Of a stretch of DNA of 64,000 nucleotides, positions 38,119 through 40,702 are shown piece after piece. The notes under the pieces were generated by a model. That model saw only the letters and a list, made by a program, of their open reading frames with translations. It searched no databases and had not been told where the DNA came from. Position 1 is the first letter of the stretch; every line of letters begins with the position of its first letter. The position numbers and the translations under genes were made by a program. This stretch comes from Escherichia coli (GTDB taxonomy: Bacteria > Pseudomonadota > Gammaproteobacteria > Enterobacterales > Enterobacteriaceae). The stretch is taken from NCBI RefSeq assembly GCF_030013595.1, contig NZ_CP122769.1; one strand, 5' to 3'.

Positions 38119-38156
38119 AAAAGAAAAAAGGGTTCCTCCGCTTTAGAGGAACCCTT
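38119..38156 (-). terminator. hok mRNA terminator, now separated from hok by IS21
   Basis: Minus strand AAGGGTTCCTC-TAAAGCG-GAGGAACCCTT followed by TTTTCTTTT; preceded by a second hairpin at 38195-38216. Confidence 0.65.
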
Positions 38157-38222
38157 TCAAAAGGTGCCGATGGCATACTAATCCACACCCTGAAAAGAGG
38201 GGGTTGCCCCCCTCTTTGTCAG

Positions 38223-38247
38223 CTACTTACCGGATTCGTAGGCCAGG
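38223..38247 (-). pseudogene. hok: Displaced last codons of hok (..AYESGK stop)
   Basis: Minus strand CCTGG CC TAC GAA TCC GGT AAG TAG continues the hok frame once the IS and one CCAGG copy are removed. Confidence 0.8.
38243..38247. repeat. 5-bp target-site duplication CCAGG (left copy) of IS21-family element
   Basis: Same pentamer at 40374-40378, flanking both ends. Confidence 0.85.
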
Positions 38248-38302
38248 TGTCAACGCCAAGATTTATGGCCGGTTTTCGCCATTTTTAATGTCCGCTATTT
38301 GA

Positions 38303-39103
38303 TCACTTTTGCTGTCCGCTTTCCGCCATTTCATCATTACTGATTGGCGTTGCGTTTTTGGCCAGCACTCCGGCTTTGCGTTTTTCCTTTAACCGATAGC
38401 TTTCTCCTTTGATATTTAGTGTGGTTGAGTGATGCAGTAGCCGATCCAGGATCGCCGTTGCCAGCACGTTATCCCCGAACATTTCTCCCCAGTCTGCGAA
38501 GCCTTTATTTGACGTCAGGATGATGCTCGCTTTTTCATATCGACGGTTCAGTAGCCGGAAGAACAGGCTGGCTTCTTCTCTGTTCATCGGCAGATAGCCT
38601 ATTTCGTCCAGGATCAGCACCCGGGCATAACTCAGTTGTTGTAGCTGGCGCTCCAGCCGGTTTTCCAGTTTCGCTTTCATCAGCGTGGCGATCAGCCTGT
38701 CCAGTGGCATGAAGAGTACTCTGTGCCCCGCATCTGCTGCTTTTACACCGAGAGCAACAGCCAGATGGGTTTTACCAACACCAGGAGGTCCCAGCAGGAT
38801 CACATTCTCGCAGCGCTCCACGAACGCCAGCCCAGCCAGCTCCCGGACAACCTTACGATCGATACCTGGCTGGAAGGTGAAGTCGAACTGCTCCAGCGTT
38901 TTGACCCATGGCAGGCGAGCCTGCTTCAGCCGGGACTCCATGCCACGCTGATGCCTGCCGTTCCATTCCTGCTGCAGCGCCATACACAGGAACTCCCGGT
39001 AGTTCAGCTCTTTTTTCGCTGCCTGCTCCAGCAGGGTTTCAACGTGATAGCTCAGGTGCTCCATTTTCAGGCGGCTCAGCAGTGCTTCAAGTTCATGCAT
39101 CAC
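38303..39103 (-). CDS. istB: IS21-family helper ATPase IstB
   Basis: 266-aa ORF; Walker [10 protein letters not shown]; Walker B LILDEIGY. Confidence 0.9.
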
Positions 39104-40272
39104 AGCAGCTCCTCATAAGCGCTCAGTGGGCGATGCTCAACCATGCTGACCTGCTGCCAGAGCGGGGCATGGTGCTCCGGTACCGTCTGCCAGCCAGATG
39201 ATGCTGAACAGAGCCGGTGTGAGGCTACCTGCTGCTCATTACTGTAGATCCGCAACTCATCATCCAGCGATATACGTATTGAGACTGGTTGCCCGCACAG
39301 GTTTTCGGGAACACTGTAACGATTGCCGCCAACCTCGATATAGCTGTCCCAGGAGACATGGCGGATGTCGAAGTAACTGGTATCGAAGTCCGTATCCGGC
39401 AACGACTGCAGATGCTCCTGTTCCAGCGCGAAGCGTTGTTCTGGTGTCTGTCTGAACTGACGAAGCTCCCGCTTGTCAGCCACATCAGCCATCCACTGCT
39501 CCAGCTGTTGGTTAACATGGGCGAAGCTGTCGAACCTGCGGTACCGGACGAAGAAGTTCTCCTTAAGATATTTAACCATCCGCTCCACTTTGCCTTTGGT
39601 TCTGGCCCTGCGCGGGCGGCAGGCCCGTGGCAGGAAGTCATAGTGGTCGGCCAGCAACAGGAACCCGGAGTTGAACACCACTTTTCCGTTGTTATTTTTC
39701 AGCACTGCAGCTTTCTGATTATCAACCAGCACCGTTTTCACACTGCCACCGAAGTAGCGGAAGGCGCGAACCAGGGATTCATAGGTGTGTTCAGCGTCCT
39801 GCTTTGGTGCGGCGAAGACATGGAAGCGACGTGAGAACCCCAGCGTATTAACCGCGAAGTTAACTTTGCATCGTTGTCCCGCGACCTCCACTTCGATTTC
39901 CCCCCAGTCATGCTGCAGCTGGTAACCGGGCTGGGTCTCGAAGCGGACTGTTTTCTTTGATGGCCGCATTTTGCGTTTGGGCTGGATGTAGTAGCGCAGC
40001 ATGGAGCGCCCGCCGGTGTAACCCATCGCTTTAATTTCCGCGAGGATGACCTCGCCATTCCAGACGTTCTCAGCCAGACGAGTGTCGATATAGTCCATGA
40101 ATGGCTTCAGTTTGGCCATTTTGTGGCGTGTCTTCCTGGCCGGGGGCTCAGGATATTTAAGATAGCGTCTGACGGTGCGCTCAGAGCAACCCACCTGAGT
40201 TGCAATATCGACAATGTACGCACCCTGCTTACGCATTTGCTTTATCATGTAAAAGTCCTCTCTGCTCAGCAT
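39100..40272 (-). CDS. istA: IS21-family transposase IstA
   Basis: 390-aa ORF; N-terminal HTH; DDE-type core ([18 protein letters not shown]); ATGA overlap with istB. Confidence 0.9.
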
Positions 40273-40353
40273 GTCGATGTCCTTTCTGGTGTGAGAACCT
40301 CAAGGAAACAACATGTTGGGTGGAGCGGACAACCCAAATGGCGAATTACAGTC

Positions 40354-40512
40354 TTATATCATTGGCGCTAACACCAGGATAGCAAATACCTCCCTTGTTC
40401 CGTCTTTCATCCGCAACTCGCAAAGCGAGTTTCGTGTGAGCCAGGTGAATATCAACAGCGTTAAACAAACTATTAATATGCACAAAACAATGGGTTGGTT
40501 CGGCATTTTCAT
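40354..40512 (-). pseudogene. hok: Hok-family membrane toxin gene with IS21-derived C-terminus
   Basis: [45 protein letters not shown] matches Hok; after codon 46 the frame enters the IS end (LVLAPMI stop) instead of LAYESGK. Confidence 0.85.
40374..40378. repeat. 5-bp target-site duplication CCAGG (right copy)
   Basis: See 38243-38247. Confidence 0.85.
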
Positions 40513-40560
40513 GGCCTTCTTCTCCTTGCATTTAAGCAGGCAAGAGGCTACGCTGTGTGT

Positions 40561-40617
40561 GACTAGCATACAGGGGCCTCGGGTTAATTGAAAAATTACT
40601 CGGGGCTTTCTGCTTTT
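40561..40617 (+). ncRNA. sok: Sok-like antisense RNA (ends approximate)
   Basis: Plus-strand TTGCAT, 17 nt, TACGCT promoter at 40526-40554; antisense to the hok leader; ends in a CCTCGGGTTAATT/AATTACTCGGGG hairpin plus a T-rich run; layout as in R1 hok/sok. Confidence 0.5.
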
Positions 40618-40673
40618 ACCACAGTCAAACAGTGTTACCGCTGGCTGGGGCAAAAGCCTCCAGCACCAGCGTC

Positions 40674-40702
40674 ATTATATCACTCTGCCCTGATCAGCCA
40701 AA
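40674..40702 (-). promoter_or_regulatory. hok mRNA promoter
   Basis: Minus strand TTGGCT, 16 nt, TATAAT, about 160 nt upstream of the hok ATG. Confidence 0.5.

Follow-up and report, generated by a model that had tools for sequence, protein, structure and literature searches.

An IS21-like insertion within the hok reading frame of an IncHI2 plasmid belongs to a series of interruptions of its hok/sok locus

The best-described counterpart of the locus analyzed here is hok/mok/sok of plasmid R1, which encodes a 52-residue Hok/Gef peptide, has a mok frame that overlaps hok and carries in its leader the antisense gene for Sok, and in which the 5' end of the mRNA pairs with the fold-back inhibition (fbi) element located just before the terminator. 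According to the outline of the R1 system in PMC9841398, the end-paired full-length mRNA is a stable, untranslatable store of killing potential. A second point of reference is provided by chromosomal loci broken by insertion sequences (IS). In Escherichia coli K-12, hok loci are inactivated by IS near the toxin open reading frame (ORF) (PMC7337300, PMC7232551), the IS186 copy downstream of gef/hokC disrupts fbi (PMC3562002), and the IS-inactivated chromosomal loci attributed to Pedersen & Gerdes 1999 in these three papers include gef/hokC::IS186, hokE::IS186, hokA::IS150 and hokX. Here we describe an IS21-like element that splits the hok gene of an IncHI2 plasmid between codons 46 and 47; positions are those of the window, that is, the whole stretch of 64,000 nucleotides of contig NZ_CP122769.1 that was analyzed. 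Most IncHI2 plasmids have an interruption at this locus, which makes the insertion one of a series of breaks and not a curiosity.

In its restored form, the locus shares with R1 the 52-residue peptide, the mok frame, the antisense gene and the predicted pairing of the mRNA ends. Its mRNA begins with GGUGCUGGAGG, where R1-type alleles have GGCGCUUGAGG, and Hok in its restored form ends in AYESGK, as does R1 Hok. Unlike R1, it is an IncHI2 backbone allele, about 74% identical at the nucleotide level to the R1-like IncFIB allele, and it is split, with the last six codons, fbi and the terminator 2.1 kb from the rest. The insertion can be grouped with the hok alleles of E. coli K-12 and B that were inactivated by IS, such as hokA, hokC and hokE of K-12: there, too, an IS near the 3' end of the toxin gene parts it from fbi and the terminator, IS-free alleles exist in relatives, and the antisense gene is left intact. 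In K-12, however, the IS lies downstream of the stop codon, whereas here it lies inside the ORF (codon 46/47) and rewrites the end of the peptide; the element is of the IS21 family and not of IS3 or IS4; and the locus resides not on a chromosome but on a conjugative resistance plasmid, where killing would be expected to matter. The interruptions seen across IncHI2 plasmids extend the K-12 observation of IS-inactivated hok from chromosomes to plasmids.

The IS boundaries, the duplication and the split hok gene are a deterministic structural feature, for which chance is not an issue. The parts of this feature are as follows.

38248-40373, minus strand, same orientation as hok: IS21-like insertion sequence of 2126 bp, carrying istA and istB, with TGT...ACA ends
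40374-40378, minus strand: target-site duplication, copy next to the IS left end, CCTGG on the hok strand and CCAGG on the plus strand
38243-38247, minus strand: target-site duplication, copy next to the IS right end, CCTGG on the hok strand and CCAGG on the plus strand
40354-40512, minus strand: chimeric hok ORF (ATG at 40512), 52 amino acids; native up to codon 46, with VLAPMI (codons 47-52) and the stop supplied by the left end of the IS
38223-38242, minus strand: orphaned hok codons, (G)CC TAC GAA TCC GGT AAG TAG, that is A47-K52 and stop

The IS reads 5'-TGTTAGCGCCAA...TTGGCGTTGACA-3'; its first bases after hok codon 46 are TGTTAGCGCCAATG, and the opposite end, 2126 bp on, is CTTGGCGTTGACA. 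The terminal inverted repeats TGTTAGCGCCAA and TGTCAACGCCAA agree at 11 of 12 positions; further in, the left end has one copy and the right end two copies of each of the repeats TTCGCCATTT and TGTCCGC. The istA and istB pair, TG...CA ends with inner repeats and a short duplication are all features of the IS21 family. A preliminary description of this DNA had proposed an IS21-family element of 2126 bp that enters hok after codon 46, changes its ending to LVLAPMI-stop and is flanked by a 5-bp duplication (CCAGG on the plus strand). Length, entry point, ending and duplication were all reproduced from the sequence, the duplicated bases form a single-copy empty site in IS-free plasmids, and the family assignment is borne out by the istA/istB domains, with which the ends and the similarity to IS21 agree. 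In-silico excision of the IS together with one CCTGG copy leaves a locus of 620 nucleotides in which Hok again has 52 residues and ends in ...AILAYESGK-stop; the LAYESGK-stop ending predicted earlier is thus recovered and is the same in IS-free relatives.

The restored locus matches that of the IS-free IncHI2 plasmid NZ_CP122916.1 at 620/620 positions and is 99.8% identical, one homopolymer base apart, to those of pAPEC-O1-R and dozens of other IncHI2 plasmids. A 90-nucleotide probe centred on the insertion site matched 1015 plasmids and was uninterrupted in 1013 of them. Comparison with IS-free relatives had been named in advance as a test that could refute the reading, and it revealed the predicted empty site and no differing junction. 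The two exceptions, which are the sole records with this insertion, are NZ_CP117034.1, a Salmonella enterica plasmid from pig faeces in Poland, and NZ_OY754830.1, the S. Typhimurium plasmid pGPT21-001_1; both are complete, were deposited separately and carry the same junction (sizes 232,119 and 232,110 bp). The exact chimeric peptide was found in only two contigs of a 153-billion-gene index, these same two plasmids, and an exact 33-mer over the hok-IS junction had no match in Joint Genome Institute (JGI) metagenome contigs or in one-genome-per-species contigs. The insertion is a single event: real, precise, rare and recent.

At the level of sequence, the intact IncHI2 allele has every feature of a regulated hok/sok module. 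The elements recognized around the coding region are listed below; those at the 3' side are now separated from the rest by the IS.

40674-40701, minus strand: predicted hok/mok mRNA promoter, -35 TTGGCT, 16-nucleotide spacer, TG-extended -10 TATAAT; predicted +1 at about G40667
40510-40668, minus strand: hok mRNA leader, which begins with the 5' tac element GGUGCUGGAGG, contains the Sok target and the mok start, and extends to the hok AUG
40526-40617, plus strand: Sok antisense RNA gene, -35 TTGCAT (40526-40531), -10 TACGCT (40549-40554)
40346-40531, minus strand: mok frame (ATG at 40531), overlapping hok; restored form of 57 codons ending in GLRIR-stop
38194-38217, minus strand: first hairpin of the 3' untranslated region (UTR), AAAGAGGGGGGCAACCCCCTCTTT, a GC hairpin by fold, now orphaned
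38163-38188, minus strand: 3' closing elements, of which 38173-38188 pairs with leader nucleotides about 97-117 (pairing probability 0.8-1.0)
38163-38173, minus strand: fbi element CCATCGGCACC, 10-11 nucleotides, partner of 5' nucleotides 1-10
38120-38158, minus strand: intrinsic terminator of the hok mRNA, a 14-bp stem and T run from the terminator scan (38126-38158 plus the T run), with a perfect 12-nucleotide inverted repeat

In the consensus scan the hok promoter matches at 10/12 positions, plus the TG. The leader is recognized over its full length (1-157) by the Rfam model RF01794, 'sok', with 81.1 bits (gathering threshold 59) and E = 2e-17. This match to a 'sok antitoxin' lies on the strand of hok and covers the mRNA from its 5' end up to the hok AUG (40510-40668); RF01794 therefore models the hok leader and not the Sok RNA made from the opposite strand. 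Sok itself is predicted to be an RNA of about 60 nucleotides (about 40559-40617) that ends in a terminator hairpin and U tail, the hairpin having a folding energy of -21.8 kcal/mol (z = -4.63). The Sok promoter was not flagged by the consensus promoter scan (TACGCT has 3/6 matches) and was assigned by position and homology to R1-type alleles. Restored Mok scores 66.6 bits against Pfam DUF5431, and restored Hok scores 64.5 bits against Pfam PF01848 (HOK_GEF), covering profile positions 2-42 of 42 with a cut-off of 22.

The restored mRNA has 413 nucleotides and a minimum free energy of -168 kcal/mol; its 5' nucleotides 1-10 (GGUGCUGGAG) are predicted to pair with fbi at a probability of about 1.0, and in the minimum-energy fold nucleotides 1-8 and 10 pair with nucleotides 365-374 with probabilities of 0.8-1.0. 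We aligned six hok alleles, namely this one, the R478-like IncHI2 allele, two of IncHI1 type, one of IncU type and the R1-like IncFIB allele, which are 74-96% identical. End-pairing of 5' with 3' is predicted in all six, and TACGAA (hok codons 48-49) is likewise kept in 6/6. The end pair, 5' GGUGCUGG with 3' CCAUCGGCACC here and GGCGCUUG with CCUGAAGCGCC in R1-like alleles, shows compensatory changes at position 3 (U-A vs C-G) and position 7 (G-C vs U-A).

The insertion alters both reading frames and the architecture of the transcript. The Hok ending changes from AYESGK to VLAPMI, with Tyr at position 48 replaced by Leu, and the Mok ending changes from GLRIR to GVSANDIRL in a frame that now has 61 codons. 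The chimera aligns with positions 2-40 of the 42 in the HOK_GEF profile and scores 58.2 bits, which is 6.3 bits less than restored Hok, the last two positions being lost. It keeps the hok Shine-Dalgarno sequence, the transmembrane helix (within residues 1-46) and Cys31, and nothing has changed in the hok promoter, at the mok start or in the Sok gene. The last six codons, the 3' hairpin, the partner of the leader, fbi and the terminator now lie 2.1 kb downstream of the gene; the tac/fbi end-pairing predicted for the restored mRNA is disrupted in the window, where the 2126-bp IS splits fbi from the 5' end. The preliminary description had anticipated a displaced fold-back partner and terminator, both of which were located (fbi at 38163-38173) more than 2.1 kb from the gene, and it had correctly taken the Sok-like promoter and hairpin at 40526-40617 to be intact, this region being identical to that of IS-free relatives. 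The terminator scan revealed no terminator-like site on the hok strand within the IS, and transcripts from the hok promoter therefore run into istA. When the chimeric transcript was folded at lengths of 294-1000 nucleotides, its 5' end was predicted to pair locally or with a chance partner inside the IS (nucleotides 682-689). The folded constructs hardly differed in how accessible the ribosome sites of mok and hok were predicted to be, and thermodynamic folding was not used as a basis for calling translation of the chimera.

Mutational data are available for R1 Hok, in which Y48N, M46I, loss of the stop codon (adding 17 residues) and a C-terminal FLAG tag each abolish toxicity, as do mutations of the hok 3' UTR that block formation of the processed, active mRNA (PMC9841398). 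Among 1264 unique Hok peptides, position 48 is Tyr in 62% and Cys in 34% (96% together), and Tyr48 is followed by GAA, giving a TACG motif that is recoded to Cys by TadA (bioRxiv 10.1101/2025.08.07.668861). In HokB, the equivalent disulfide is essential for toxicity (PMC12214031). Because the peptide loses AYESGK, including Tyr48, and the transcript loses its own 3' UTR, two mutually reinforcing losses, the insertion is quite likely to yield a null hok allele, a dead killer module and not a deregulated toxin. The chimera is probably non-toxic at native expression, and we hold with somewhat more confidence than either of these that the chimeric locus would be unable to mediate post-segregational killing. 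The preliminary description had left the outcome between inactivation and a deregulated, still toxic chimera; the evidence on position 48 and on the 3' UTR supports the former better than the latter.

In the course of events that we envisage, the chimeric peptide would lack the conserved periplasmic end AYESGK and with it Tyr48, which is the editable TACG codon and corresponds to the second periplasmic cysteine of other Hok proteins. With the 5' tac element deprived of its fbi partner, the leader deprived of its 3' partner and the terminator 2.1 kb off, the long-lived, translationally silent full-length mRNA that stores the killing potential could not form. Transcripts from the hok promoter would enter istA; they would be destroyed after folding directly into the form that Sok can reach, or else encode a crippled peptide, while other maintenance systems would presumably keep the plasmid stable.

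Several points weigh against inactivation as described. We know of no demonstration that the intact IncHI2 locus mediates killing, and 'inactivation' presumes prior activity. A read-through transcript of about 2.5 kb would carry fbi at its end, and late end-pairing is conceivable. Over-expressed Hok remains toxic with single conserved residues changed to alanine, E49A among them (bioRxiv 10.1101/2025.08.07.668861), and at high dose the hydrophobic chimera might therefore retain part of its activity. Finally, gef::IS186 of K-12 continues to be transcribed and remains under the control of its antisense RNA (PMC3562002), so that loss of fbi does not as such silence the gene.

The hok/sok locus is interrupted in about 82% of IncHI2 plasmids, a pattern that the preliminary description had not noticed: 182 plasmid records hold at least 80% of the 620-nucleotide locus in one piece, while 1015 hold its coding 3' part. 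Three control segments of the same length, taken from the backbone around the hok/sok segment (38050-40800), are uninterrupted in 99.4-99.9% of records.

40860-41479, 620 bp: control segment in the upstream gene, uninterrupted in 996/1002
37200-37819, 620 bp: control segment in downstream genes, uninterrupted in 988/989
34883-35502, 620 bp: control segment, mostly non-coding, 2.7 kb away, uninterrupted in 984/986

The interruptions were catalogued by inspecting representative plasmids and are listed below by their position in the restored locus, whose hok frame starts with the ATG at 289 and stops at 447. Record counts are inflated by clonal expansion.

216-219 (window 40582-40585): IS150, duplicating AACC within the stem of the Sok terminator and the hok leader; in pHNSHP45-2 and, by estimate, 500+ records
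216-219: ISKpn8, 94.5% identical to IS150, AACC duplication, same site and orientation, in the R478-like allele
275-290 (window about 40511-40526): 5.7-kb segment, 15-16 bp duplication (A)GGAGAAGAAGGCCAT; about 240 records, R478-like IncHI2
423-427: the IS21-like element described here, CCTGG duplication, the sole interruption within coding sequence
459-471 (window about 38199-38211): IS421 (IS4 family, IS186-like), 12-13-bp duplication GGGGGCAACCCCC, in the 3' hairpin GGGGGGCAACCCCC
about 497 (window about 38173): IS26, next to fbi (comparison locus L007, 6283-6284)

IS150 or ISKpn8 occupies the AACC site in comparison loci L004 (4559-6000), L006, L007 and L010 (3559-5000). IS150 and ISKpn8 diverge by 5.5% and their flanks by 4-6%; the two are either one ancient event, inherited by both IncHI2 sub-lineages, or two strikes on a hot spot, and were counted as one certain and one possible event. 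The 5.7-kb segment (L009, 6291-12290; L008, 1-6000) contains an ISNCY-family transposase, ISEsa2, cytochrome b, a cation diffusion facilitator (CDF) transporter and relBE, and it lies between the mok start and the hok ATG, parting the hok ORF from its promoter. IS421 is present in opposite orientations in L005 (6471-7807) and L006 (8257-9593) and also in the diverged R478-like allele of L011 (5469-6800), which therefore represent at least two independent strikes on one site; its position in a GC hairpin just 3' of the hok stop resembles that of IS186 downstream of hokC and hokE in K-12. In the Salmonella Indiana plasmid p87912, which also has IS150 in the hok leader, the IS26 end GGCACTGTTGCAAA adjoins the hok 3' UTR directly before fbi. 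A probe for the 3' UTR was interrupted in 203/1015 records. Altogether, at least six independent insertions within 282 bp are certain, and possibly eight. Every interruption is compatible with hok silencing, and in no case is Sok lost with hok still expressible, a combination that would be lethal.

A preference for such sites is on record for two of these kinds of element. IS186-type elements target GC hairpins and sit downstream of hokC and hokE in K-12 (PMC3562002), and IS150 inserted repeatedly beside hokC, hokE and mokB of E. coli B over 2000 generations of laboratory evolution (PMC5419217). The latter cases share with IncHI2 the repeated independent strikes in hok/sok regulatory regions; they differ in that they concern chromosomal loci, arose in the laboratory and involve another IS, whereas the IS21-like element is a natural insertion in coding sequence. 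Our literature search found no paper joining IncHI2, IS150 and hok; in the IncHI2 papers found, hok-sok is listed only as present or absent, or is unmentioned.

How the insertion should be read depends on whether the junction is genuine, whether the chimera still acts, and whether the locus mattered before it was broken. An assembly or sequencing artefact was ruled out, its probability being negligible: the ends TGT...ACA are clean, the 5-bp duplication is perfect, and the same junction is present in two separately deposited complete plasmids, although the 3'-UTR hairpins of the window and of NZ_CP117034.1 differ by 1 nucleotide in a homopolymer, which points to minor sequencing noise. We also regard it as quite improbable that the chimera is still a working toxin at a deregulated locus, whose mRNA would be made directly translatable and Sok-binding, with cells surviving only through an excess of Sok and the locus either imposing a cost or still killing plasmid-free cells via a shorter-lived mRNA. 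Such a reading draws on the retention of the hok promoter, mok start, Shine-Dalgarno sequence, transmembrane helix and Cys31, on the 58 bits that the chimera still scores against HOK_GEF, on the predicted local folding of the 5' end, without end-pairing, once fbi is gone, on the toxicity of over-expressed E49A-type single alanine mutants, and on the gef::IS186 precedent, where transcription and antisense control persist. Yet Y48N alone, C-terminal extensions and tags remove R1 Hok toxicity at native expression, and the chimera alters six residues in a row, including position 48, which is Tyr or Cys in 96% of Hok peptides. Moreover, killing needs an mRNA that outlives Sok, namely the end-paired full-length form that is lost here, and a strong cost is made less likely by the plasmid's persistence in two isolates deposited separately.

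More weight, though still well short of an even chance, can be given to the idea that the insertion has no functional consequence, the IncHI2 hok/sok being dispensable or already inactive and the site tolerating or attracting IS without selection. The plasmids with an interrupted locus, about 82% of IncHI2, are successful all the same, including mcr-1 plasmids of the pHNSHP45-2 type; IncHI2 has other maintenance systems, parAB and hipAB (PMC6306219); IS150 repeatedly enters beside chromosomal hok loci in laboratory evolution (PMC5419217); and GGGG-N-CCCC hairpins are a known target of elements of the IS421/IS186 type, the hairpin of this kind in the 3' UTR having been struck in both orientations. 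However, the intact allele retains all regulatory elements, compensatory changes keep the 5'-3' pairing across alleles of 74-96% identity, and the ORF is undamaged in 1013/1015 plasmids; the kept pairing and undamaged ORF mark a locus with a history of selection. Tolerance of non-coding DNA does not explain the enrichment, since one of the control segments, largely non-coding and 2.7 kb away, has no interruption in 984/986. For IS21-like elements we know of no target preference, and three relatives of the present one lie in unrelated 4-bp sites. Tentatively, and with no greater probability than the preceding idea, loss of hok may be advantageous for IncHI2, with mobile elements as the usual route and hok-less lineages having come to dominate the sequenced population; in a variant of this proposal, Sok-only alleles like the present one would act as an antidote to killing by competing IncHI2 plasmids.

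The insertion itself matters little: it occurs in 2/1015 plasmids and most likely costs one of several maintenance devices. What matters more is that a textbook addiction module is broken in about four fifths of a resistance plasmid family of global importance that carries mcr-1, mcr-9 and extended-spectrum beta-lactamase (ESBL) genes, a population pattern that raises the question of whether, for a large conjugative plasmid that partitions well, killing through hok costs more than it brings. Automated annotation continues to call the chimeric ORF a 'Hok family toxin', and annotation- or PCR-based surveys will therefore overstate functional hok/sok on IncHI2.

The element itself carries two genes, the products of which match the expected Pfam domains.

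39100-40272, minus strand: istA transposase, 390 amino acids, with a helix-turn-helix (HTH) region, rve DDE core and Mu-transposase C-terminal domain
38303-39103, minus strand: istB helper ATPase, 265-266 amino acids, its start overlapping the istA stop

IstA scores 53 bits against rve and 62 bits against Mu-transpos_C_2, and IstB matches IstB_IS21 over its full length with 297 bits. The prototype of the family, IS21 of Pseudomonas R68.45, is similar in length (2131 bp vs 2126 bp here), in its overlapping istA and istB, its TGT...ACA ends, the several repeats near both ends and the terminal TTGACA pointing outward at the right end. The nucleotide identity to IS21 is 88%, which by the usual IS naming thresholds makes the present element a separate isoform or species; the corresponding amino acid identities are 94.9% for IstA and 94.7% for IstB. 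ISEc62 is 87.4% identical at the nucleotide level. Copies identical to the IS (100%) were found only in NZ_CP117034.1 and NZ_OY754830.1, both with the same hok junction, and the next-nearest ones (91.6% of nucleotides; IstA 98.5% and IstB 97.4% of amino acids) are unnamed IS21-family elements of Citrobacter, Klebsiella and E. coli plasmids. Three relatives have target-site duplications of 4 bp each (CTGC, AGTT and CTAT), unrelated in sequence, as opposed to the 5 bp seen here; duplications in the IS21 family range from 4 to 8 bp. Comparison of the sites of the three relatives revealed no apparent target motif that would explain the hok site.

In both NZ_CP117034.1 and NZ_OY754830.1, the IS finds one further match of lesser strength at another place on the plasmid. 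The termini of the 5.7-kb segment, TGTTAACACCAAG...GCGTTGACA, resemble the ends of the IS21-like element. The IS right end (38248-38256) reads GTTGACA, a perfect outward-facing -35 hexamer as in IS21, and the adjoining flank (38223-38247) offers only weak -10 candidates (GTAAGT and TAAGTA) 17-18 bp from it; a hybrid promoter that would drive the orphaned hok 3' UTR seems unlikely.

The 3'-UTR hairpin at 38197-38214 (GAGGGGGGCAACCCCCTC), both here and in NZ_CP122916.1, has one C fewer than in most IncHI2 plasmids, as judged against L001, L003 and L005, which is either a homopolymer polymorphism or a sequencing error. RefSeq annotates Hok in two comparison loci (L001, 7894-8019; L002, 3328-3447) as a protein of 39-41 amino acids that starts inside the transmembrane helix; the annotated start codon reads ATA in the sequence, and the ATG frame gives 52 amino acids. 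A 93-residue backbone ORF (L001, 6404-6685; window about 41688-41969) bears the label 'Brucella suis mprF, defensin resistance, identity 100%' from the PLSDB resistance-gene predictor, which recurs in every IncHI2 plasmid inspected and looks like a database artefact.

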